Below are positions 2,013 through 31,566 of a DNA stretch of 34,536 nt, piece by piece (positions within the stretch are counted from its first letter, which is position 1; each line of letters begins with the position of its first letter). The translations under genes were made by a program, and so were the position numbers. The notes below the pieces were generated by a model that was given only the letters and a program-made list of their open reading frames with translations, made no database searches and was not told where the DNA came from. The stretch is taken from the NCBI GenBank assembly GCA_012145005.1, contig GCA_012145005.1_3029.2; one strand, written 5' to 3'. This DNA is from a phage.

Positions 2013-5000
2013 ATGGCCGAGATTAAAAGAAAGTTCAGAGCAGAAGATGGTCTGGACGCAGGTGGCGATAAAATAATCAACGTAGCTTTAGCTGATCGTG
2101 CCGTAGGAACTGACGGTGTTAACGTTGATTACCTAATTCAAGAAAACACAGTTCAACAATATGATCCAACTCGTGGATATTTAAAAGATTTTGTAATCAT
2201 TTATGATAACCGCTTTTGGGCTGCTATAAATGATATTCCAAAACCAGCGGGAGCTTTTAATAGCGTACGTTGGAGAGCATTACGTACTGATGCAAACTGG
2301 ACAACTGTTTCGTCAGGACCTTATCAATTAAAGTCAGGTGAATCAATTTCAGTTAATACTGCAGCAGGAAATGATATCACATTTACTTTGCCAACTTCTC
2401 CAATTGATGGAGATACTATCGTTCTTCAAGATATTGGTGGAAAACCTGGAGTTAACCAAGTTTTAATTGTAGCTCCAGTGCAAAGTATTGTAAACTTTAG
2501 AGGCGAACAAGTACGATCAGTACTAATGACCCATCCAAAATCACAGATAGTTTTAATTTTTAGTAATCGTCTGTGGCAAATGTATGTCGCTGATTATAGT
2601 AGAGAAGCTGTAGTTGTAACGCCTGCAAGTCTCTATCAGGCGCAATCAAACGATTTTATCGTACGTAGATTTACTTCTGCTTCAGCAATTAATATTAAAC
2701 TTCCTAGATTTGCTAATCATGGGGATATTATTAATTTTGTTGATTTAGATAAATTAAATCCGTTATATCATACTATCGTTACTACATACGATGAAACGAC
2801 TTCAGTACAAGAAGTTGGAACTCATTCTATTGAAGGCCGTACATCTATTGATGGTTTCTTAATGTTTGATGATAATGAGAAATTGTGGAGATTGTTTGAC
2901 GGGGATAGTAAAGCACGTTTACGCATTATAACGACTAATTCTAATATTCGTCCAAATGAAGAAGTCATGGTATTTGGCGCGAATAATGGAACAACCCAAA
3001 CAATTGAACTTCAGCTTCCAACTGATATTTCTATCGGTGATACTGTTAAGATTTCCATGAATTATATGAGAAAAGGACAAACAGTTAAAATCAAAGCTGC
3101 CGGTGAAGATAAAATTGCTTCTTCAGTTCAATTGCTGCAATTTCCAAAACGTTCAGAATACCCACCTGAAACTAAATGGGTGACTGTTCAAGAATTAGTT
3201 TTTAATGGCGAAACCAATTATGTTCCAGTTTTACAGCTTGCTTATATCGAAGATTCCGATGGAAAATATTGGGTTGTACAGCAAAACGTTCCAACTGTAG
3301 AAAGAGTAGACTCTTTAAATAATTCTACTAGAGCAAGATTAGGCGTAATTGCTTTAGCTACACAAGCTCAAGCTAATGCTGATTTAGAAAATTCTCCGCA
3401 AAAAGAACTGGCAATTACTCCAGAAACGTTAGCTAATCGTACTGCTACAGAAACTCGTAGAGGTATTGCAAGAATAGCAACAACTGCGCAAGTAAACCAG
3501 GATACCACATTCTCTTTTGCAGATGACCTTATCATCACTCCTAAAAAGTTGAATGAAAGAACTGCTACAGAAACTCGTAGGGGTGTCGCTGAAATTGCTA
3601 CGCAGCAAGAAACAAACGCAGGAACAGATGATACAACCATCATTACTCCTAAAAAGCTTCAAGCTCGTCAAGGTTCTGAATCATTATCTGGTATTGTAAC
3701 TTTTGTATCTACTGCAGGTGCTACTCCGGCTTCTAGCCGTGAATTAAATGGTACAAATGTTTATAATAAAAACACTAATAACTTAGTTGTTTCACCTAAA
3801 GCCTTGGATCAGTATAAAGCTACTCCAACGCAACAAGGTGCAGTAATTTTAGCAGTTGAAAGTGAAGTAATTGCTGGACAAAGTCAGGAAGGATGGGCAA
3901 ATGCTGTTGTAACGCCAGAAACGTTACATAAAAAGACATCAACTGATGAAAGAATTGGTTTAATTGAAATTGCTACGCAAAGTGAAGTTAATACAGGAAC
4001 TGATTATACTCGTGCAGTCACTCCTAAAACTTTAAATGACCGTAGAGCAACTGAAAGTTTAAGTGGTATAGCTGAAATTGCTACACAAGTTGAATTCGAC
4101 GCAGGCGTCGACGATACTCGTATCTCTACACCATTAAAAATTAAAACTAGATTTAATAGTACTGATCGTACTTCTGTTGTTGCTCTATCTGGATTAGTTG
4201 AATCAGGAACTCTCTGGGACCATTATACCCTTAATATTCTTGAAGCAAATGAGACACAACGTGGTACACTTCGTGTGGCTACACAAGTTGAAGCTGCTGC
4301 TGGAAAATTAGATAATGTTTTAATAACTCCTAAAAAGCTTTTAGGTACTAAATCTACTGAAGCACAAGAAGGTGTTATTAAAGTTGCAACACAAACCGAA
4401 ACTGTTGCTGGAACATCGGCAAATACTGCTGTATCTCCAAAAAATTTAAAATGGATTGTGCAGAGTGAACCTACTTGGGCAGCTACTACTGCAGTAAGAG
4501 GCTTTGTTAAAACTTCATCTGGTTCAATTACATTCGTTGGTAATGATACAGCCGGTTCTACTCAGGACTTAGAGCTATACGAGAAAAATAGCTATGCAGT
4601 ATCACCATACGAATTAAACCGTGTATTAGCAAATTATTTGCCATTAAAAGCAAAAGCTGCAGATAGTAATTTATTGGATGGTCTAGATTCATCTCAGTTC
4701 ATTCGTAGGGATATTGCGCAGACGGTTAATGGTTCACTAACCTTAACTCAACAAACGAATCTGAGTGCCCCTCTTGTATCATCTAGTACTGCTACGTTCG
4801 GCGGATCAGTTTCAGCAAATAGTACATTAACTATTTCTAATACTGGAACAGCAACTCGATTGATTTTTGAGAAAGGACCTCAAACTGGAACAAACCCAAC
4901 CCAAACGATGACTGTTAGAGTGTGGGGAAATCAATTTAGTGGGGAATTAGATACAACACGTTCTACCGTATTTGAAGTTAGTGATGAAACATCTAGTCAT

Positions 5001-7733: not shown

Positions 7734-11859
<4,126 letters not shown>

Positions 11860-11889
11860 TTTGAATAAATATCCTTAAAAGGAGGGTCT

Positions 11890-14638: not shown

Positions 14639-15274
14639 TCACAGTTCAGATGCTACAGTGATTACTGCTTCAATGTTTTCTTCCGAGCGTTTAATGTCAA
14701 GATACACATTACCGTTTTTAGCGATTTTACATGACATTCCGATATCAGTAAATTTCTGAATATGATGTTCCATCATTTTGTATCCAAAAATTCGCATATT
14801 TCCATTGTTGTTAATTTCAAAATTACGAATTCCGTGAGTACGTTTTTCTAAAATAGCGAGATAGTTACTACGATAAGTTTCAACCTTTTTAAGAACAAAT
14901 CCATTTTCATCTAAAAGTTTTAACATGAAGTCTTTATCTTCTTCCATATCAGAAGTAATCTCACGAGCTTTACGAGTTGCTCGTTTTTTCAGTAGTTCCG
15001 GAGCATTTTCCTGTGCGTATAAAGTTGCTGCGTTTGAAATAATATCCTGAGCTTCACCAGTAATGATTAATCCATCACCAGATTTCTCCACCAGGCCTTT
15101 TTTAATCAATACCCCAATATTACTATTAACTACTGCGTTACCTAAATCTGGATGCACCTCACGAACTTCTGCAGCTGTAATGAAATCTTTCTTAGCAATA
15201 GTAATTAAAATCGCAGCAGTTTTTTCATTCAGAACATCGTTAGAAGCTTTGATGATGTAAGTTACTTTAGACAT
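14639..15274 (-). CDS. motA: middle-transcription activator MotA (211 aa)
   Basis: MSKVTYIIKASNDVLNEKTAAILITIAKKDFITAAEVREVHPDLGNAVVNSNIGVLIKKGLVEKSGDG recognised as T4 MotA; early promoter upstream. Confidence 0.9.
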   Translation of the reverse strand: MSKVTYIIKASNDVLNEKTAAILITIAKKDFITAAEVREVHPDLGNAVVNSNIGVLIKKGLVEKSGDGLIITGEAQDIISNAATLYAQENAPELLKKRATRKAREITSDMEEDKDFMLKLLDENGFVLKKVETYRSNYLAILEKRTHGIRNFEINNNGNMRIFGYKMMEHHIQKFTDIGMSCKIAKNGNVYLDIKRSEENIEAVITVASEL

Positions 15275-15290
15275 TTTCTAATCTCCGTAA

Positions 15291-15326
15291 TTCTGTATCA
15301 GTAGTTGATAGTTGTATAGTACCACA
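15291..15326 (-). repeat. dispersed promoter-leader repeat, copy 1 (motA)
   Basis: Minus strand GTGGTACTATACAACTATCAACTACTGATACAGAA. Confidence 0.6.
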
Positions 15327-15345
15327 GTATGCTTTGGTTGTAAAC
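15316..15345 (-). promoter_or_regulatory. early promoter for motA
   Basis: GTTTAC, 18-bp spacer, TGGTACTAT; directly downstream of a terminator hairpin. Confidence 0.65.
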
Positions 15346-15360
15346 CGTTTTGTGAAAAAA

Positions 15361-15394
15361 TTTTAAAATAAAAAGGGAGAGCCGAGGCTCTCCC
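15361..15394 (-). terminator. intrinsic terminator after the motA.1-position ORF
   Basis: Perfect 8-bp stem GGGAGAGC/GCTCTCCC, 4-nt loop, then UUUUUAUUUUAAAA on the minus-strand transcript. Confidence 0.65.
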
Positions 15395-15399
15395 TAAAA

Positions 15400-17180: not shown

Positions 17181-17336
17181 TCAACTATTTTTAGAACCAA
17201 TGTACGCGAATAATGATAAAATCGCTAATACGCCCTGAGCTGATGCTTGCAAAAATACTGAAGTTTCTCCAGTTATTACTGTTCCGATGCATAAAAAGAA
17301 CCAACAGAAAAAGGCTATACCGTGAACAAATTTCAT
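17181..17336 (-). CDS. small membrane protein (51 aa), paralogue of the Ac-like ORF; not in ORF track
   Basis: ATG at 17336 with GAGGA SD; MKFVHGIAFFCWFFLCIGTVITGETSVFLQASAQGVLAILSLFAYIGSKNS. Confidence 0.45.
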   Translation of the reverse strand: MKFVHGIAFFCWFFLCIGTVITGETSVFLQASAQGVLAILSLFAYIGSKNS

Positions 17337-18592: not shown

Positions 18593-18602
18593 TTTCTGTT
18601 CC

Positions 18603-18630
18603 TCCGTAGTTGATAGGGTAATAGTACCAC
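18603..18630 (-). repeat. dispersed promoter-leader repeat, partial copy 4
   Basis: Minus strand GTGGTACTATTACCCTATCAACTACGGA. Confidence 0.4.
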
Positions 18631-18650
18631 GGAAGAACAGTCTTGTAAAC
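18621..18650 (-). promoter_or_regulatory. early promoter for ORF 18479..18592
   Basis: GTTTAC, 18-bp spacer, TGGTACTAT. Confidence 0.55.
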
Positions 18651-18758: not shown

Positions 18759-18841
18759 AATAACCTCATTACAAAAGTAAATGTTAAACAAATTAATGGA
18801 ATACTAATTAACCAAACAAAACACCACCATAATGAACTCAT
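18755..18841 (-). CDS. small hydrophobic peptide (28 aa), not in ORF track
   Basis: MSSLWWCFVWLISIPLICLTFTFVMRLL; stop overlaps next ATG. Confidence 0.35.
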   Translation of the reverse strand: MSSLWWCFVWLISIPLICLTFTFVMRLL

Positions 18842-18869
18842 AGTTCAATCTCAACGATTTTCATTTTAC

Positions 18870-19076
18870 TCAATAATCCGCTAAAAGATCGACGATTGCA
18901 TCACGAAGACACTTATTCGCAATACGTTTAAGAGCAATTTCAGTTTCTGGAGCATTTTGAATAATCATTGAATTCAATTCAGCCTCAGCAAACTGAAGTT
19001 CTTTAACTAATTCAGCTTTATATTTTCCTTGCCCTTTCTTAGCTTTTGCTCGTTTTAATTCAGCTGTAGTAAACAT
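18870..19076 (-). CDS. hypothetical protein (68 aa)
   Basis: Track ORF 18870..19175 reads through an early promoter; ATG at 19076 follows GGAGAATAAA; MFTTAELKRAKAKKGQGKYKAELVKELQFAEAELN. Confidence 0.55.
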   Translation of the reverse strand: MFTTAELKRAKAKKGQGKYKAELVKELQFAEAELNSMIIQNAPETEIALKRIANKCLRDAIVDLLADY

Positions 19077-19090
19077 TTTATTCTCCAAAT

Positions 19091-19120
19091 CCGTATCAGT
19101 TGATAGTTGTATATTACCAC
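19091..19120 (-). repeat. dispersed promoter-leader repeat, copy 2
   Basis: Minus strand GTGGTAATATACAACTATCAACTGATACGG. Confidence 0.6.
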
Positions 19121-19140
19121 AGTCCTTGTGGTATGTAAAC
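19111..19140 (-). promoter_or_regulatory. early promoter for ORF 18870..19076
   Basis: GTTTAC, 18-bp spacer, TGGTAATAT. Confidence 0.6.
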
Positions 19141-19714: not shown

Positions 19715-19976
19715 TTAGACTTTCCTTTTTACCGCTGAGATAAGCGTTATATACTTTAAGAGTGCCGTAATAAATTCGGTCATTTTCATCTAAAGACTCA
19801 CGGTCAAGTTCATCGAGTTCCTTTTTATCCATGACTATAACATCATTGCAATAAAGAAACCCAAGTTTTTCGTGTCCAAACTCAAATTTATTACAGTACA
19901 CAATATTAGCGTGATGATTACCATGTAGAGAAATTTCTTTTATGTCGGAATCACCGATATTCATACAATAAATCAT
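19647..19976 (-). CDS. hypothetical protein (109 aa)
   Basis: ATG at 19976 with AAGGTGA SD; 3' end overlaps denB start by 68 nt out of frame. Confidence 0.5.
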   Translation of the reverse strand: MIYCMNIGDSDIKEISLHGNHHANIVYCNKFEFGHEKLGFLYCNDVIVMDKKELDELDRESLDENDRIYYGTLKVYNAYLSGKKESLNAENESGFTETISDSDIYPIEQ

Positions 19977-19993
19977 AATTCACCTTAAAACAA

Positions 19994-20009
19994 AAGGGCC
20001 GAAGCCCTT
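19994..20009 (-). terminator. UUCG-tetraloop hairpin after ORF 20013..20207, U-rich on both sides
   Basis: AAGGGC-UUCG-GCCCUU on minus transcript followed by UUUUGUUUU; plus strand also followed by TTATTTTATTT. Confidence 0.5.
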
Positions 20010-20207: not shown

Positions 20208-20221
20208 AATTTTCCTTAGTT

Positions 20222-20237
20222 AAGGGCCGAAGCCCTT
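20222..20237 (-). other. UUCG-tetraloop hairpin between rIIB and ORF 20013..20207
   Basis: Same AAGGGC-UUCG-GCCCUU sequence as at 19994; overlaps rIIB stop; no U-run on the minus strand. Confidence 0.45.
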
Positions 20238-21174
20238 ATTTAAATTGTTCAGTAACGTCTTCAATTACTTCGTATTGGCAGGTACGCATTTTAGCGTCGT
20301 TGTAATCAATCGGAATTGATACTACATCACGAGGATGAACTTTAACTTTTACAACTCGGCTGGTTGAACCACCGAAGTGACGAATATAAGATTTAGAACA
20401 CACATGCAGACCACGAGAACAAGTTTGTGTATCATCGTCATTCACACGAGTACGCGGCATTTTAACTACTTTACCAGGACTGTTATCAAAGGTATTTGAG
20501 TGACAGTCAAAGTAATTGCTGCGAACTACTTTCCAAGCATAGAAGTAACCATCTTCTGTAATTTCAATATCGTTTGCTACCAAGAAATCAAAAAGTCGAG
20601 ATACCGCTTTCTGGCTTGGGTTTTCCAGCAGATTTTCCAAGAACGGAAAATAAAATTCAAAGTTTTCGCCTTTTTCCATCGAATCAAGAATACGATCAAC
20701 CAAACCAGACCGCAATTCAATATTTTGATAGAATAAGCTTCCACCTTCAATTCGAACATCGCCGGAAATATATTTTTCAACAGCGCGACGAACATTAATT
20801 TTTTGTGCCGCTTCTTCCAGCTTATCCGCTACAAGCAGATTGAGAATTTCCTGGAAGTTTGAATGAGTATTAGGCGTTGCATTATAAGTTACACCATCGA
20901 CAGTAATCGAAATGAATTTTTTAGATGCATTCCAAATAATGTCAGATTTAGTAACTGGAGCAATAACTGCATCGCTATTAACTTTAACTGTAATATCACC
21001 GCTAATAGTAACTTTAGGGCGTTTAGCTTCTTCAGCATTTTTCAAAACACGACGGATTGTATCAACCGATACATCTTGCCAATCAGCCAATTCCTGCTGA
21101 GTATAATTACCGCTTGAATACAGTTTAACAATTTCAGCTTGTTCGTTTTTGGTCAGGCATTTAATATTGTACAT
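20236..21174 (-). CDS. rIIB: rIIB protein (312 aa)
   Basis: Size, position adjacent to rIIA, N-terminus MYNIKCLTKNEQAEIVKLYSSGNYTQQELADWQDVSVDTIRRVLKN. Confidence 0.9.
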   Translation of the reverse strand: MYNIKCLTKNEQAEIVKLYSSGNYTQQELADWQDVSVDTIRRVLKNAEEAKRPKVTISGDITVKVNSDAVIAPVTKSDIIWNASKKFISITVDGVTYNATPNTHSNFQEILNLLVADKLEEAAQKINVRRAVEKYISGDVRIEGGSLFYQNIELRSGLVDRILDSMEKGENFEFYFPFLENLLENPSQKAVSRLFDFLVANDIEITEDGYFYAWKVVRSNYFDCHSNTFDNSPGKVVKMPRTRVNDDDTQTCSRGLHVCSKSYIRHFGGSTSRVVKVKVHPRDVVSIPIDYNDAKMRTCQYEVIEDVTEQFK

Positions 21175-23602: not shown

Positions 23603-23632
23603 ATTATACCACATCCTTGTGGTAAAGTAAAC
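23603..23632 (-). promoter_or_regulatory. early promoter for rIIA.1-position ORF and rIIA
   Basis: GTTTAC overlapping the gene 39 stop, 18-bp spacer, TGGTATAAT. Confidence 0.6.
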
Positions 23633-25449
23633 TACTGGCTCATCCATTCTTTACGAAGGTCAGCATTATCTCCCATGAGCATTTCAAAAAGCTCTTTCCA
23701 ATTCTCAGGAAGTTTAACAACATCATATACTGGATTTTGAATCATCTCACGATATTCAGATTTTTCCAAAGAGCCAAGTCCTTTAATATAACGGATGCTA
23801 TGTTTAGGTAGAGCATCTTTGGCACTCTCATATTCAGCGACTGTATAAAACCATTCTTGTTTTTTACCGACCTGAGCGATGATTACAGGAGTTTTGACAA
23901 AGCGAATTCGTCCTTGCTCAAACAGTTCTGGCCAATTACTAAAAAATCCGAGCAGAGAAGGATAAATGCTTCCTAGACCATCATGGTCAGCATCAGTCAT
24001 AATAGCAATATTATGATAATTCAAGTTTTCGGCTTTTTCACCAAGAACTAATCCAGTGATTGCGCAAATATCAAACAGTTCTTTGTTTTTAAGCATATCA
24101 GCATATGACATACCCCAACTGTTGAGAACTTTACCACGCAATGGATAACCACCGTGAAGTTCTTTATCACGAACATCAATAAGATATCCGATAGCAGAAT
24201 CACCCTCAGTCAAGAAAAGAGTCGTGTCAGCATCTTTACCACAAAGATTCGCTTTAATGTGTTTATGAACCTTAGCTTTAGAAGCCTTTTTAGCTGCTTT
24301 AGTTTCTGCTGCTTTTTCTGCCGCCAATTTACGAGCCAAGGCAGCTTCAATAATTGGCATTAAAATTGCTTCATTGTTTAAAATGGCGCGCGAAATCTTT
24401 TTAGCATCAAGCTGAATATGACTACGAATTTCACCAAATGGAGAAGTCAAACGCTCTTTAGTTTGAGAATCAAATCGCATGTTTTTCATATCACGAACAA
24501 ACATGACGATAGTCAAACATTCTTTAACACGTGCTTTAGTTACATCAATTTTGAACTTACGTTTGATTTGTGGAATAAGGTCTTCACAAATATCATCCAT
24601 AACACAGTCAATGTGATGACCACCATTCTTAGTATGAATGTTATTAACGTATGTTAATTGACGAAAACCATCCGGTGAACGACCAACCGCAATAGAACAA
24701 TTTTCTTGTTCTTGAACAATAGCATGCTCATCATATTGGCGTGCATATTTCTTAAAATTACCCTGAACCTTTTTACCATTAAAGGTAAATTGAATATCAG
24801 GATAAACTACTGCAAGTGTCTGGAGACGATCCAGTGTAATGTCAAGATAAACCTGAGACAGCTCATTAGTTTCAAATGACATAAAATCAGGAATGAAAGT
24901 AACACGAGTTCCTTTCCATTTTCCAGGAATATCTTCCCATGATTTATTTTCCATGCCATTTGAACAACGAACTACAATATTATTTTGACCATCGCCAGTT
25001 TCACCAACAAACATTACAGAAAAAATGTTAGTTAAACTAGAACCAACACCGTTCATACCACCAGTGACGCGTTCTTTATCATCACCGAAGTTACCACCTG
25101 CTTTTGGAATAGTCCAGGCAGCAACAGGACCAGGAATTTCTTCGCCGGTAGGTGTTTTAACCATCGCTTGTGGAATACCGCGACCGTTATCTTCAACTGT
25201 TACTTGATTGTTTTTGATAGTAACATTAATTTTATTCGCGAATTTAAACTTAGTACGAATACCTTCATCTACTGAGTTATCGATAATTTCATCAATAAGC
25301 TTAACAAGACCAGGTACATACTGAACACTTTCCCATTTACCAAACAGAAAGCGCTCATGCATTTCATTAGCAGAAGAGCCAATATACATGCCGCTACGCT
25401 TTTTGATATGTTCAATATCGCTCAGAATTTTAATTTCATTCTTAATCAT
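23632..25449 (-). CDS. 39: DNA topoisomerase II large subunit gp39, uninterrupted form (605 aa)
   Basis: Track start is GTG at 25452; ATG at 25449 follows GAGGA; MIKNEIKILSDIEHIKKRSGMYIGS; GyrB-like ATPase and Toprim (EGDSA) in one reading frame. Confidence 0.9.
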   Translation of the reverse strand: MIKNEIKILSDIEHIKKRSGMYIGSSANEMHERFLFGKWESVQYVPGLVKLIDEIIDNSVDEGIRTKFKFANKINVTIKNNQVTVEDNGRGIPQAMVKTPTGEEIPGPVAAWTIPKAGGNFGDDKERVTGGMNGVGSSLTNIFSVMFVGETGDGQNNIVVRCSNGMENKSWEDIPGKWKGTRVTFIPDFMSFETNELSQVYLDITLDRLQTLAVVYPDIQFTFNGKKVQGNFKKYARQYDEHAIVQEQENCSIAVGRSPDGFRQLTYVNNIHTKNGGHHIDCVMDDICEDLIPQIKRKFKIDVTKARVKECLTIVMFVRDMKNMRFDSQTKERLTSPFGEIRSHIQLDAKKISRAILNNEAILMPIIEAALARKLAAEKAAETKAAKKASKAKVHKHIKANLCGKDADTTLFLTEGDSAIGYLIDVRDKELHGGYPLRGKVLNSWGMSYADMLKNKELFDICAITGLVLGEKAENLNYHNIAIMTDADHDGLGSIYPSLLGFFSNWPELFEQGRIRFVKTPVIIAQVGKKQEWFYTVAEYESAKDALPKHSIRYIKGLGSLEKSEYREMIQNPVYDVVKLPENWKELFEMLMGDNADLRKEWMSQ

Positions 25450-25466
25450 CACTTATCCTCGTTTGG

Positions 25467-25779: not shown

Positions 25780-25783
25780 AATT

Positions 25784-26155
25784 TCACTCAAATTTAATGG
25801 CTTGAAGGAGACTAATAATTCTTAAACGGCTTCTTTCATCTTTAACTGTAAAAGAAAGAGGATCGCCAGATTTCATGGTGATAGTGCATTCAAAACCAAA
25901 ATCTTCAGGAACTTCTTCGAAGAAGTCAAATTCTTCATCATAAATTAAAACATTACTCTGAAAACTGTGAAGAATTTTTCCATCATTTCCAGATGCTGTA
26001 CTAATCATTGTAACATTATGACCTTTCATATCTTCAACGATAAATTCGCTTGTAGATATTACGGCATTAATAGAACCATTCCTATAAATAGAAGAAAGCA
26101 GATATTTCTTTTCTTCACCTTCACGAACACGATATTTCTTACCGATTTTAAACAT
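25784..26155 (-). CDS. hypothetical protein (123 aa)
   Basis: Track ORF starts at GTG 26161; first ATG at 26155. Confidence 0.55.
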   Translation of the reverse strand: MFKIGKKYRVREGEEKKYLLSSIYRNGSINAVISTSEFIVEDMKGHNVTMISTASGNDGKILHSFQSNVLIYDEEFDFFEEVPEDFGFECTITMKSGDPLSFTVKDERSRLRIISLLQAIKFE

Positions 26156-26336: not shown

Positions 26337-26756
26337 TTATTCCTTAAAGTGTGCTTTCAACATCTGATACAAGGACCATGCCTGTTCATTATTTTCAATA
26401 GTAACTTTCATGATAGGAAATTCTGTGAAATCTTCTATTTGTTCTTGCTCTTCCTGCTCTTGCTCTTCAGCTGCCTGATATGGATTTTCCACTTCATCAA
26501 AGAACCCAGCTTCACTTTTTGAAAGCCAAATAAAGTCTTCATCCAAAACATCTTTATCAGGAGATAGTACTAAATTTCCAGTAGATGACAAAATTTTAAT
26601 AGGACGCCCAAGAGCGTCCACATCTAAAATTTTAAAAGGATACATACCTAAACGGCGCGCATAGATTCCGTTATTAATATGGTCTTTAATAAAATTTTCT
26701 TGAGCTTGTTTATTTTTAAATTGATACCATTTATTAACTTCAAATTTAATAGCCAT
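26337..26756 (-). CDS. hypothetical protein (139 aa) with acidic EQ-rich segment
   Basis: ATG at 26756; segment [20 protein letters not shown]. Confidence 0.6.
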
Positions 26757-26971
26757 TAATAAATTTCCTTCCAGTAAGTTGTACCGTCTTCAGTGATTTC
26801 ACGGAATACACCATAAATCGGTTGTTTATCACCAACCTTTTCATACACATAAACAGAAGTCAAGTGAGTAAACTTAACGGTATGTTCCTTTTGAACTACT
26901 ACCAAATCTGGATCGAATAATACATCTTCAAATTCGTCATTAGTGCAGTTCTGAACAGTTTTACGTTTCAT
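26756..26971 (-). CDS. hypothetical protein (71 aa)
   Basis: ATG at 26971; promoter-like repeat element upstream. Confidence 0.6.
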
Positions 26972-27064
26972 TACAATTTCCTCATTAATTGAACAGTGGA
27001 GCGATGCGTTTCAGAAGAGTGGCAGCACCTTTGGCAAATTTTCCATTTTATTCTCCAAGTTGTT

Positions 27065-27099
27065 TTCTGTATCAGTAGTTGATATTGATATAGTACCAT
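27065..27099 (-). repeat. dispersed promoter-leader repeat, copy 3
   Basis: Minus strand ATGGTACTATATCAATATCAACTACTGATACAGAA. Confidence 0.6.
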
Positions 27100-27119
27100 A
27101 ATCAACTACTAATGTATAT
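27090..27119 (-). promoter_or_regulatory. candidate early promoter for ORF 26756..26971
   Basis: TGGTACTAT extended -10 inside the dispersed repeat; -35 weak. Confidence 0.45.
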
Positions 27120-27720: not shown

Positions 27721-28263
27721 TTAATTCAAAATAGCTACCACTGCACTACGAGGTACTACACTAAAATCACCTGCATGAACAACGTTCAGAAGTTCAACAC
27801 CATCTTCAATCCACTGGTCTGTTACCCAACCACAGACCGAAATAAATGGGGTCTTGATAGCTACAGCACGAGTTAGAAGGTCAGTAGGATCGCATTCTTG
27901 GAAGAGGATAAGCTCTGCTTCAAAGACTATAGTTTTAATTACTTCATCATTATCTAATCGTTGTGCTCGAATCACGTAAGCTTTATTCTTATCATGCCAA
28001 TTACTTTTTGAAAAACTTTTAACCACAAACTCGCCTTCACCCAAAACACTGGTCAATGCTTTATAACCCAAACTTAGTTCAGTAGTTTTAATTTCAGTTT
28101 CAACCAGTTTGTAGGTTTTGTCAATTTCGATGGTCCGAGCAGTCATAAAAGTTTCCTTAATTTCTAATGGTTTAACAAGAGTGCCGTACATGCTTGCTAT
28201 ATCCATATCAAATATTTTATCTATAGGATTTGGGGTGTATTCAGGATTATAATTAAATTTCAT
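27721..28263 (-). CDS. hypothetical protein (180 aa), paralogue of ORF 27147..27644
   Basis: ATG at 28263; shared motif C-x-[IV]TDQW[IV]EDGV-x-L-x-N-x-V. Confidence 0.6.
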   Translation of the reverse strand: MKFNYNPEYTPNPIDKIFDMDIASMYGTLVKPLEIKETFMTARTIEIDKTYKLVETEIKTTELSLGYKALTSVLGEGEFVVKSFSKSNWHDKNKAYVIRAQRLDNDEVIKTIVFEAELILFQECDPTDLLTRAVAIKTPFISVCGWVTDQWIEDGVELLNVVHAGDFSVVPRSAVVAILN

Positions 28264-28265
28264 AA

Positions 28266-28766
28266 TTATCTCATTTCAATAAAATCTACAAGTTCAGCAT
28301 GGGATTTGCGGAACATTACTTGGTGTCCGCCAATGATAACTTCATCTTCAGGAACTTCGTATACAGCAAGATAAAACCCTTTAGAAGATAATTCTTCACG
28401 TTCTTCTCGTGTGAACCATCTCATCATATCATATTCACTAGCGAAAGCAAAATGATAAAGAGCTATAAACCATCCTGGAATATGATATTCTACTCCAACA
28501 TAATCTTTCTTGAACTTAGTATTAATTACTATATTAGCGTTTTTAACTAATAGTTTATCTTCATGTGGTACAGGAATTCTTTTATTATCATCACTATGAT
28601 GCATAAAATTAGGTCTGCTATAACCTACCCGTAATAGCCACTCTTCGCTCCATGAATCTATTATACTCCTGTATGGCGTTATTTGAACACAAAGATTTCG
28701 ACGTATTGTTATAGCATCTTCATAATCAAGAATACTAAACGATGATTCAACACGATAAATTTTCAT
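28266..28766 (-). CDS. hypothetical protein (166 aa)
   Basis: Track ORF 28266..28805 reads through an early promoter; ATG at 28766 follows GAGGATAATAAA; MKIYRVESSFSILDYEDAITIRR. Confidence 0.55.
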   Translation of the reverse strand: MKIYRVESSFSILDYEDAITIRRNLCVQITPYRSIIDSWSEEWLLRVGYSRPNFMHHSDDNKRIPVPHEDKLLVKNANIVINTKFKKDYVGVEYHIPGWFIALYHFAFASEYDMMRWFTREEREELSSKGFYLAVYEVPEDEVIIGGHQVMFRKSHAELVDFIEMR

Positions 28767-30008: not shown

Positions 30009-30240
30009 ATTTAATCAGCAACTTACAGACACTTTCATCTAATGTAATTACAGTATCTGTATTACTGTGATATGATTGTTTTTCAATTCGTTTAATTGCT
30101 AGTATAGTATCACTTATAAGATTAAGCTTATAAAGGAGCTCAGCTCCTGTTACCATAACACTGAGGTTATCTTGCTTATCAGTGTGCTTCTTTATACCAT
30201 CTATTAGACGATTTAAATATTTTGAATTGATGTTAATCAT
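29980..30240 (-). CDS. hypothetical protein (86 aa)
   Basis: Track ORF immediately downstream of dda. Confidence 0.5.
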   Translation of the reverse strand: MININSKYLNRLIDGIKKHTDKQDNLSVMVTGAELLYKLNLISDTILAIKRIEKQSYHSNTDTVITLDESVCKLLIKFEEAIRGNN

Positions 30241-30246
30241 ATATCC

Positions 30247-31566
30247 TCACACATAAAACACATCATAACGACCACGAGTGACACCAACATAAAGAAGCTG
30301 CTGAGCCAATTCAGCATCTGCATAATGAATACAAGGAGTATAGATGAAAGCACGATCTACAGACATGCCCTGAGCTTTGTGGAATGTTGATGCAGGAAGT
30401 GCTTTCACTTTACTAAACTGTGATTTAGCATCCCAAAAATCACTCCACGGAGCTTTTCCACCTTTATTCCAATTTTTATACGTTTCTGCCGTTTTACCTA
30501 AAAATAAGTTAAACTTATACAGCTCTTCATCAGATGAAATTATTTTAATCTTTTCACGATAATATTCATCATCGCCGTAAGTTTCTACTGTTAAATCCCA
30601 ATGACGAATTAGATATTCTCCAGAAACACCACGAGCTTTAACAAATGTTGATGTATACTCTGCTTCTATAATACGAACTAATTGTCCGTTATTAAAAATA
30701 ATTTCTGACACAGGCTTTCCATCAATTTTATATGTTTTAATTAATGGTTCCTGCATTACAATAATTTCACCAACGATAAAATCTTTATCAGTTTCAAAAA
30801 TCTTTTTGCGAATAATGTTATTTAACTTATCAACAGATTTATTCGTAAATGCCATGACGCGATTTTCAAACAAATCATCTAGTGATTTTACGATTGAAAA
30901 ATAATTTACCATAAAATCGCGTAAAGCGGCATCACCGGTAAATCCACGTACTCCATGCCCGTCAACAACTTTATCATAAATCCACTTACCGTTGCGAACA
31001 TCAGTAGCTACATCAATAATAGGAGCATTACTGCGTTTAACTTCAGTGAGTTCACACTGATAAAAATCTTTATGTGTAAAGAACGGGCTGATATAAGCGG
31101 TGTTTTCTCCTGGGTCAACAGGTCTAATTTGCTTATTATCGCCTATTCCAATTATAGTACACCACGGCGGGATAGTTGAAAGCAGAATTTTAAATAGCTT
31201 TCTATCATACATTGACACTTCGTCGCAGATTAATACTCTACATTTAGCTAAATCTGGTACTTCTTTTTGTTCAAAAAGAACGTTTTCTTCATATGTTACT
31301 GGGTTAATTTTAAGAATACTGTGAATAGTACTCGCTTCTTTCCCTGATAGTTTTGAAAGAATCTTTTTAGCCGCATGTGTAGGAGCTGCTAAAATAATGC
31401 CAGTTTCGCCCGTAGATATTAAGGCTTCAATGATGAACTTAGTAAGAGTAGTCTTACCAGTACCAGCAGGTCCATTAATAGTTACATGATGTTTCTTTTC
31501 TTTAATAGCCCTCATAACGATGTTAAAGGCATTTTTCTGGCCTTCGGTCAAATCATCAAATGTCAT
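30247..31566 (-). CDS. dda: Dda DNA helicase (439 aa), SF1B
   Basis: MTFDDLTEGQKNAFNIVMRAIKEKKHHVTINGPAGTGKTT (Walker A) ... GVTRGRYDVFYV; recognised as T4 Dda. Confidence 0.9.
   Translation of the reverse strand: MTFDDLTEGQKNAFNIVMRAIKEKKHHVTINGPAGTGKTTLTKFIIEALISTGETGIILAAPTHAAKKILSKLSGKEASTIHSILKINPVTYEENVLFEQKEVPDLAKCRVLICDEVSMYDRKLFKILLSTIPPWCTIIGIGDNKQIRPVDPGENTAYISPFFTHKDFYQCELTEVKRSNAPIIDVATDVRNGKWIYDKVVDGHGVRGFTGDAALRDFMVNYFSIVKSLDDLFENRVMAFTNKSVDKLNNIIRKKIFETDKDFIVGEIIVMQEPLIKTYKIDGKPVSEIIFNNGQLVRIIEAEYTSTFVKARGVSGEYLIRHWDLTVETYGDDEYYREKIKIISSDEELYKFNLFLGKTAETYKNWNKGGKAPWSDFWDAKSQFSKVKALPASTFHKAQGMSVDRAFIYTPCIHYADAELAQQLLYVGVTRGRYDVFYV

Follow-up and report, generated by a model that had tools for sequence, protein, structure and literature searches.

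The DNA analysed here, referred to throughout as the window, is a stretch of 34,536 nucleotides which, judged by its sequence, comes from a T4-like phage, a Tequatrovirus that shares about 97% identity with RB27/Aplg8. Many Tequatrovirus genomes, Aplg8, RB27 and SH7 among them, matched a 2-kb probe around the repeat that is the subject of this report at 97-98% identity. Comparison with annotated T4 identified rnh, genes 34-38, t, asiA, arn, motA, 52, ac, ndd, denB, rIIB, rIIA, the 39/60 topoisomerase gene, goF, cef, motB, dexA, dda, srd and modA/B in the window, with the early genes on the minus strand. A previous sequence-only reading of this DNA had described three near-identical minus-strand copies of a short repeat and one partial copy, and all four are present where it had placed them (Table 1). 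The genes behind them are motA (ATG 15274), an ORF of 68 amino acids (ATG 19076; its repeat is called the 19111 copy below), an ndd.4-like gene (ATG 18592; the partial copy) and an 11-codon mini-ORF that precedes cef (ATG 27046).

Table 1. Features at the four repeat-bearing loci of the window
Feature	Position	Strand	Sequence and details	Basis
Repeat copy 1 (motA repeat block)	15326..15291	minus	TGTGGTACTATACAACTATCAACTACTGATACAGAA; extended -10, -10, discriminator and initial transcribed region; predicted +1 15309	
motA promoter core	15316..15345	minus	-35 GTTTAC 15345..15340; 18-nt spacer ending TGTGG; -10 TACTAT 15321..15316	
motA A/T-rich upstream element	~15346..15373	minus		sequence
Intrinsic terminator stem-loop of motA cassette	15374..15395	minus	AGGGAGAGCCTCGGCTCTCCCT then T-run; 9-bp stem, 6 GC pairs	
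RegB/S1 site and Shine-Dalgarno of motA	15276..15286	minus	GGAGATTAGAA; motA ATG 15274..15272; window identical to T4	
Repeat copy 2 (19111 copy)	19120..19091	minus	GTGGTAATATACAACTATCAACTGATACGG	
19111 promoter	19091..19120 (block)	minus	-35 GTTTAC 19140..19135; -10 TAATAT 19116..19111; predicted +1 19104	
RegB/S1 consensus, 19111 copy	19076..19086	minus	GGAGAATAAAA, exact; last A is first base of ATG 19076..19074	
68-aa ORF, homologue of PST ORF269, not in T4	18870..19076	minus		T4 comparison
8-codon leader mini-ORF	18838..18864	minus	MKIVEIEL*; stop overlaps ndd.6-like ATG (ATGA); in T4 directly after cassette	
Partial repeat copy (ndd.4-like)	18630..18603	minus	GTGGTACTATTACCCTATCAACTACGGA	
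ndd.4-like promoter (partial copy)	18596..18650	minus	-35 18650..18645; -10 18626..18621; predicted +1 18614; GGAG 18605..18602	
ndd.4-like hairpin across -10	18640..18626 and 18610..18596	minus	spacer CTGTTCTTCCGTGGT with leader ACTACGGAGGAACAG	fold
Repeat copy 3 (cef leader)	27099..27065	minus	ATGGTACTATATCAATATCAACTACTGATACAGAA	
cef-leader promoter	27065..27099 (block)	minus	-35-like ATATAC 27119..27114; -10 TACTAT 27095..27090; predicted +1 27083	
cef hairpin across -10	27071..27113	minus	arm ATTAGTAGTTGAT 27113..27101 complementary to core ATCAACTACTGAT 27083..27071	
RegB/S1 consensus and cef mini-ORF	27011..27056	minus	GGAGAATAAAA, exact, 27056..27046; 11-codon mini-ORF 27046..27011; cef 26971..26756	

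The top direct-repeat family returned by a repeat search of the window, D1, comprises four copies of 64 nt with 61-81% identity to the reference copy. In a scan of the window the core TATCAACTNNTGATAC was matched four times at no more than two mismatches, compared with 0.52 matches expected, and none of 100 shuffles reached four. Alignment of the copies showed a homology of about 90 nt, longer than first reported, that runs from an A/T-rich upstream element through the -35 and the -10 to a Shine-Dalgarno sequence and ATG.

Each copy lies in a promoter of the T4 immediate-early type, GTTTAC-N18-TAcTAT. The published consensus of T4 early promoters has GTTTAC at -35, the extended -10 TGTGGTAtAAT and an A-rich upstream element (Hinton 2010, PMC2988021; Nolan et al. 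2006, PMC1524935), and the four window copies match it in sequence, spacing, orientation and position before early genes. At the motA, 19111 and ndd.4-like promoters GTTTAC is exact, TGG closes an 18-nt spacer and the -10 is TACTAT or TAATAT; at the cef copy a normal extended -10 is combined with ATATAC at -35. The A/T-rich upstream element is present at about -40 to -60 (for example AAAATTTTTTCACAAAACG). At motA the window promoter is identical to that of T4, where the -10 ends at 163644. The -35, spacer and -10 elements and the comparison with T4 bear out the earlier view of the copies as early promoters, and immediate-early transcription would be expected of them, their T4 orthologues being treated as early promoters in the literature. 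The repeat is the start-site and short-leader part of known strong T4 immediate-early promoter cassettes, a family dispersed over the genomes of T4-like phages and exchanged by recombination, so that its presence is nothing unusual for this group.

T4 numbering puts the last T of the -10 at -7 (PMC1524935), and the promoter feature in GenBank entry X75802, which annotates two of the T4 orthologous promoters, ends at the A of ATCAAC. We therefore placed +1 at this A, on promoter geometry and database annotation, for all four copies (Table 1); a literature search for genome-wide mapping of T4 transcription starts found nothing relevant. With +1 in this position the block spans about -14 to +19 and therefore enters the transcript. 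The proposal that conservation extends past the -10 into the leader is borne out to about 19 nt of transcribed RNA, and the simpler possibility that had been set against it, a block wholly upstream of +1, does not agree with this geometry. The usual footprint of RNA polymerase reaches about +20, so the whole block falls inside it.

How much of this conservation belongs to the promoter family as a whole was judged from a consensus recomputed on 33 T4 early promoters aligned on their -10. Positions -6 to +8 read A.accT/ATCAACTA with 0.2-0.8 bit per position, and beyond +8 the information content is at background down to the Shine-Dalgarno region. The sequence CTGATAC(A/G)GA, at +9 to +18, is found in only six of the 33 (ndd.6, motA, e.8, nrdC.10, imm.1 and cef) and is not included in the published consensus; T4 has five exact copies of TATCAACTACTGATAC and one with a 3-nt deletion, all at the same offset from an early -10. 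There are also short-leader versions in which CTATCAACTAC runs straight into GGAG, namely T4 nrdC.8 and denV, with close variants at ndd.4 and trna.4, and the partial copy of the window is of this short-leader type. The first half of the conservation beyond the -10 is, then, family consensus and the second half specific to a subfamily. The sequence-only reading had held that the conservation exceeds what promoter recognition needs. The motif search and early-promoter alignment that it had recommended find the block in six T4 promoters and -6 to +8 shared across the 33; with the whole block also inside the usual polymerase footprint, its claim was overstated.

The same division is seen at the motA promoters of five other T4-like lineages (Mosigvirus, Dhakavirus, Jiaodavirus, Karamvirus and the unclassified Yersinia phage MHG19). 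CTATCAA or CATCAA is kept in four of the five, and an A/C-rich leader and a Shine-Dalgarno sequence are present in all five (GGAG in four, GAGG in MHG19); the CTGATACAGA extension is absent from all five. For the wider distribution of the block we relied on blastn of a 55-nt probe against a phage collection, which found it in 542 phage records, mostly of Escherichia, Shigella, Yersinia and Salmonella hosts, and mostly at 4-9 places per genome among the genomes listed. It was not taken from an exact-pattern scan of viral contigs for CTATCAACTACTGATAC, which gave 30 loci, most of them apparently on unrelated metagenome contigs.

The position of the block at -6 to +18, inside the polymerase footprint, could mean that the initial transcribed sequence has a sequence-specific promoter function, whether in escape, in the response to Alt/ModA-ADP-ribosylated polymerase or as a target of early shut-off. 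Such a function would be consistent with the perfect preservation of +1 to +16 in five T4 copies whose spacers are divergent, and with the retention of the start-site consensus AYCAA across T4-like lineages. It would also find room in what reviews report, namely that early-promoter alignments show further consensus regions, that the elements to which the effect of Alt maps do not include the -35, the TGn or the -10, and that how early shut-off works is unknown (PMC2988021, PMC3014915). However, most T4 early promoters do without +9 to +18, and in OE5505, as in other T4-like lineages, the cassette that drives motA is a different one. We regard a sequence-specific promoter function as a very unlikely explanation for the block. 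Gentz and Bujard in 1985 and Kammerer et al. in 1986 reportedly found that strong early promoters of phage T5 share sequence to about +20, affecting late initiation steps; the T5 sequences differ from the T4 block, and the likeness is in the extent to about +20.

The inverted repeat TATCA...TGATA to which the sequence-only reading drew attention gives the block dyad symmetry at -1 to +14. It is present in two window copies and in five T4 copies, but the spacing of its arms is not conserved: the 19111 copy has lost 3 nt (ACT), so that its arms stand 2 nt apart instead of 5, and both spacings occur in the window and in T4 alike. In RNA the arms could pair as a shared 5'-terminal hairpin, AUCA-ACUAC-UGAU, which would stabilise the mRNA or be recognised by a factor. 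This would be the shared leader structure that had been suggested, and we find it hardly credible. Folded from +1, the AUCA/UGAU hairpin has only 4 bp and -0.6 kcal/mol, a value that 27 of 200 shuffles equal or better, and the 3-nt-deleted copy is unable to form it. The whole leaders have z-scores near zero (0.01, -0.90 and -0.23), and are in this sense unstructured from +1. Across the 33 T4 promoters their own transcripts, taken from +1 to +45, show a little less structure than shuffled sequences do (mean z +0.58, p = 5e-5), and an Rfam scan of the whole window gave no family match.

Read as DNA or RNA symmetry, TATCA-N5-TGATA might instead be the operator of a dimeric regulator, which would give substance to the protein-binding site proposed earlier. 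The dyad itself favours such a reading. The 5- or 2-nt arm spacing argues against it, as does the absence of the block from the motA leaders of other T4-like lineages and its replacement at motA in another Tequatrovirus, and we rate an operator as extremely improbable, together with the related idea that the block is part of the RegB recognition site. Fold energy, the variable distance between the arms and the replacement of the block in relatives were the grounds on which both the 5' leader hairpin and the dimer operator were rejected.

The RNase site that the earlier reading suspected does exist at these loci, outside the block. Durand et al. (2006, PMC1702504) defined the RegB/S1 target as GGAGAAUAAAA, 11 nt counted from GGA; their deletion analysis found that no specific 5' sequence is required, and alignment of the cleaved RNAs showed no conservation elsewhere in a 48-nt window. 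Exact 11-mers stand behind two of the window copies (19111 and cef), and behind the third is the experimentally cleaved motA site, GGAGATTAGAA, which agrees with GGAGRAYARAA at 10 of 11 positions. It is because this site follows the copies that the conservation continues to the ATG. That a known RNase site adjoins the block and that extra 5' sequence speeds the cleavage of motA RNA, named for T4 as a good RegB substrate (PMC1702504), could be taken to include the block in the recognition site. The target nevertheless lies downstream of the block, which is not needed for cleavage, and the block as part of the RegB site was rejected on the published deletion and alignment data (PMC1702504). The same work leaves room for a modest kinetic role of the leader in RegB cleavage.

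The architecture that emerges has been described before. The PeSL (promoter-early stem-loop) cassette of Arbiol et al. (2010, PMC2839356) consists of an AT-rich region, a promoter, a stem-loop, a Shine-Dalgarno sequence and an ATG. Mapping in the same study placed the crossovers that give rise to the mini-circles of RB49 in the interval from the -10 to the SD/ATG. Comeau et al. (2014, PMC4122927) described PeSLs for the PST/T4 pair, including an exchange of ndd.4/.5 for ORF268/269. The window copies have the same architecture of AT-rich region, sigma-70-type early promoter (TTTACW-N17-TAYWAT in the PST/T4 pair), stem-loop that precedes or overlaps the promoter, and Shine-Dalgarno sequence with ATG. 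They are likewise dispersed among small early genes and tied to indels, including the published T4/PST exchange in the ndd region, and the segment flagged by the repeat is the crossover segment of RB49. The stem-loop component is provided at motA by an intrinsic terminator directly upstream of the promoter, in the 19111 copy by the spacer palindrome CCACAaggacTGTGG, and at the cef and ndd.4-like promoters by hairpins across the -10, while a Shine-Dalgarno sequence and start codon close the 3' end of the conserved unit. The copies lie between small early genes at which close relatives differ by indels and exchanges, although several window/T4 indels are not at cassettes. The long-leader subfamily, ATCAACTACTGATAC(A/G)GA, is not a separate entity in the PeSL papers, and mini-circle formation has been shown only for RB49/phi1, not for Tequatrovirus.

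The cassettes are mosaics. Among the six long-leader T4 promoters the mean identity is 0.73 in the upstream element and 0.80 from -6 to +18, compared with 0.37, the background value, in the spacer. The imm.1 promoter agrees with ndd.4 in its spacer (14/14) and with ndd.6 in its initial transcribed region (24/24), and the homology of ndd.6 and imm.1 runs on 12 nt into coding sequence; in frd.3 the upstream element is that of motA, the spacer that of nrdC.10 and the leader a different one. Gene content changes at the same places. Relative to T4, the 68-aa ORF of the window is a 204-bp insertion exactly between GGAGAATAAA/ATG and GAGTAAA/ATGAAAATCG, with its junctions at the 3' end of the cassette (SD/ATG). 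Phage records that contain the ORF number 125, T2 and PST among them; the PST version is likewise preceded by the 3-nt-deleted leader, and in Gaprivervirus VR26 a homologue stands behind an unrelated cassette. At motA, Tequatrovirus OE5505 carries a cassette of the JS98 type, and it has an extra ORF behind a T4-type cassette; Sfk20 has lost the upstream element and the -35, and a metagenomic relative (L049) is without the cef cassette, with the junction at the start of the mini-ORF. In these comparisons gene insertions, cassette swaps and cassette losses have their junctions at cassettes. The mosaic sharing of segments and the junctions at SD/ATG lend indirect support to recombination of the copies with each other, and the suggestion of the sequence-only reading that the repeats mediate recombination between early units fits the mosaics, the junctions and the PeSL literature (PMC2839356, PMC4122927). 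Ongoing concerted evolution or homogenisation of the copies, also considered, is not supported at this time depth, as orthologous copies of T4 and the window are closer to each other than paralogous copies are.

The hairpins across the -10 were studied by folding the segment from -30 to +30, which exists as RNA only in read-through transcripts. The register of the cef hairpin shifts by a few nt between lineages, and each sequence was therefore folded separately, with shuffles, rather than by counting covariation column by column. Strong hairpins whose loop holds the -10, of dG as low as -24 kcal/mol, are frequent in T4 early promoters: z is below -2 in 17 of 33 and below -4 in 12, whereas z below -4 occurs in 0.7% of random 60-nt windows. 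For 9 of the 17 the stem takes in the Shine-Dalgarno sequence. At cef the spacer ATCAGTAGTTGAT is the reverse complement of the repeat core ATCAACTACTGAT (dG -17.9 kcal/mol and z -4.8 in the window; dG -20.1 and z -6.0 in the T4 orthologue), and the ndd.4-like hairpin (dG -22.7 kcal/mol, z -6.7) buries the Shine-Dalgarno GGAG. The differences between T4 and the window, C-G to U-G at cef and U-G to C-G in the ndd.4-like hairpin, keep the pairing. Orthologous cef promoters have different arms (for example GGTGTAGG/CCTACACC and TGGTAGGAGC/GCTCCTACCA), and the hairpin is kept in eight distinct non-Tequatrovirus cef promoter sequences (52-68% protein identity; z -2.0 to -6.4) whose own transcripts fold at about 0 kcal/mol; the more distant cef orthologue L061 has no such hairpin. 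These structures correspond to the stem-loops of RB49 PeSLs, which lie between the -35 and -10 or overlap the -10 and one of which was a strong terminator in a lacZ reporter (PMC2839356).

These observations allow the block to be seen as one arm of a selected hairpin across the -10, formed only by read-through RNA or single-stranded DNA, which would attenuate or insulate upstream transcripts or hide the ribosome-binding or RegB site while the promoter's own transcripts stay open. The complementarity at cef, the buried GGAG, the kept pairing and the similar placement of the RB49 stem-loops are all consistent with this. However, the spacer is not complementary to the block, and z is about 0, in five of the six long-leader copies of T4 and in two window copies, motA and 19111, so that a hairpin cannot explain conservation of the block there. 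The T4-type hairpins also have no following U-runs and so are not canonical intrinsic terminators. Selection on such a hairpin is, we believe, improbable as the reason for the repeat. A wider proposal, which we put forward tentatively and consider unlikely, is that hairpins across the -10 are a general, selected device of T4-like early promoters, the block being a 3' arm that is intact at cef and was copied elsewhere by recombination without its partner. Candidate roles would be attenuation, insulation of translation and protection from RegB. If the proposal were true, the fate of an mRNA (attenuation, translation, RegB cleavage) would depend on whether it started at the embedded promoter or by read-through. 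In a still bolder variant, the conserved start-site motif AYCAA would be the cis-target of early-promoter shut-off. Strong hairpins enclose half of the early promoters of T4, covary across T4-like lineages and are absent from the promoters' own transcripts, and this may merit experiment.

A promoter inside a hairpin is known to control T4 genes e, soc, 49 and I-TevI (reviewed in PMC3014915) by the same logic, in that read-through RNA forms the helix and RNA from the embedded promoter is without the 5' arm. Those are late promoters whose ribosome-binding site is always hidden, whereas the promoters here are early and about half of their hairpins include the Shine-Dalgarno sequence. The reviews consulted here discuss promoter-in-hairpin logic only for a few late-promoter cases.

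We consider it probable that the repeat represents the part from the -10 to the leader in one subfamily of PeSL-type cassettes of T4 immediate-early promoters, and that its conservation reflects generic promoter and leader function combined with shared descent and exchange of segments. A complete cassette comprises a stem-loop, an A/T-rich upstream element, the -35 GTTTAC, the extended -10 TGTGGTAcTAT and the start-site consensus CT/ATCAAC, followed by a short, unstructured and G-poor leader, a RegB/S1-cleavable Shine-Dalgarno sequence GGAGAAUAAAA and the ATG. Host sigma-70 RNA polymerase would fire these promoters immediately after infection, with the block, within the polymerase footprint, giving the start site and the initial transcribed sequence. 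The single-stranded leader would leave the GGAG site open to ribosomes and, later, to RegB and ribosomal protein S1, and RegB cleavage would then inactivate the mRNA. As for the near-identity of the copies, about the first 14 nt past the -10 would follow the promoter-family consensus, and the remainder would be due to common descent and to exchange between cassettes by homologous recombination of the phage. Against this, the identity of five T4 copies from +1 to +16 despite diverged spacers would fit purifying selection on a sequence-specific leader function too. A dedicated block-binding factor is unnecessary to explain the repeat.

The repeat is in this sense already known, since catalogued T4 early promoters and published PeSL cassettes have been re-found in a close relative of T4. 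What the analysis contributes is a separation, beyond the -10, of family consensus (-6 to +8) from shared ancestry (+9 to +18), and a placement of the RegB site relative to the block. It also documents clean, cassette-bounded gain and loss of genes and swapping of cassettes at motA, ORF269 and cef, in keeping with a role of the repeats as junctions for the gain, loss and swapping of small early genes.

Strong hairpins enclose about half of the early promoters of T4 genome-wide. When the 33 T4 early promoters were aligned on the -10 and folded, 12 gave z < -4, as compared with 0.7% of random 60-nt windows, and 17 gave z < -2, with the Shine-Dalgarno/RegB site being paired in 9 of those 17. In these hairpins one arm comes from the -35/-10 spacer and the other from the beginning of the leader, and the -10 lies in the loop. 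The transcripts initiated at the hairpin-bearing T4 promoters themselves are without the 5' arm and are unstructured. At orthologous cef promoters the hairpin is retained and the arm sequences differ. The window carries two early promoters of this type (table).

Features located in the window
Feature	Position	Strand	Remark
Hairpin-type early promoters	27071..27113; 18596..18640	minus	cef; ndd.4-like
8-codon leader ORF	18838..18864	minus	immediately 3' of RegB/SD site
11-codon leader ORF	27011..27046	minus	immediately 3' of RegB/SD site
Stem-loop AAGGGCCGAAGCCCTT	19994..20009; 20221..20238		two near-identical copies, repeat family D17
Topoisomerase large-subunit ORF	23632..25452	minus	single, 606 aa
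Gene 37/38 region	7900..11865	plus	
Further insertions/replacements relative to T4	17183..17332; 19728..19931; 25781..26153; 27833..28278; 30017..30247		

The stop codon of the shorter leader ORF shares the sequence ATGA with the start codon of the ndd.6-like gene, and this overlap suggests that the two are translationally coupled. imm.1 and the ndd.6 leader ORF, 140 kb away from each other in T4, begin their coding sequences with the same 12 nt, ATGAAAATCGCT.

The two AAGGGCCGAAGCCCTT stem-loops lie on either side of the denB.1-like ORF, separated by 228 bp, and both were scored as predicted bidirectional terminator-like sites. The topoisomerase large subunit is encoded by one ORF in the window. 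In T4 (compared at 2793..3911) its place is taken by gene 39, mobA, 60.1 and gene 60, the last of these being translated with a bypass, so that the window lacks about 1.1 kb found in T4. The five further insertions/replacements relative to T4 are 150-450 bp each and several contain small ORFs; early-promoter cassettes were not obvious as their borders in the comparison of the window with T4. Nucleotide similarity to T4 is almost nil in the gene 37/38 region, which encodes the distal part of the tail fibre; this is consistent with an adhesin type differing from that of T4, along the lines of the contrast between a gp38 adhesin and a gp37 tip that has been discussed for PST and T4.

In OE5505 (motA-region locus L043, 440..960) there is an additional 75-aa ORF together with a Dhakavirus-type motA promoter. 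In Sfk20 (the corresponding locus L044, 440..570) a 41-bp deletion has removed the upstream element and the -35, yet the extended -10 and the leader are retained. Judging from these sequences, the region upstream of motA is highly plastic among Tequatrovirus.
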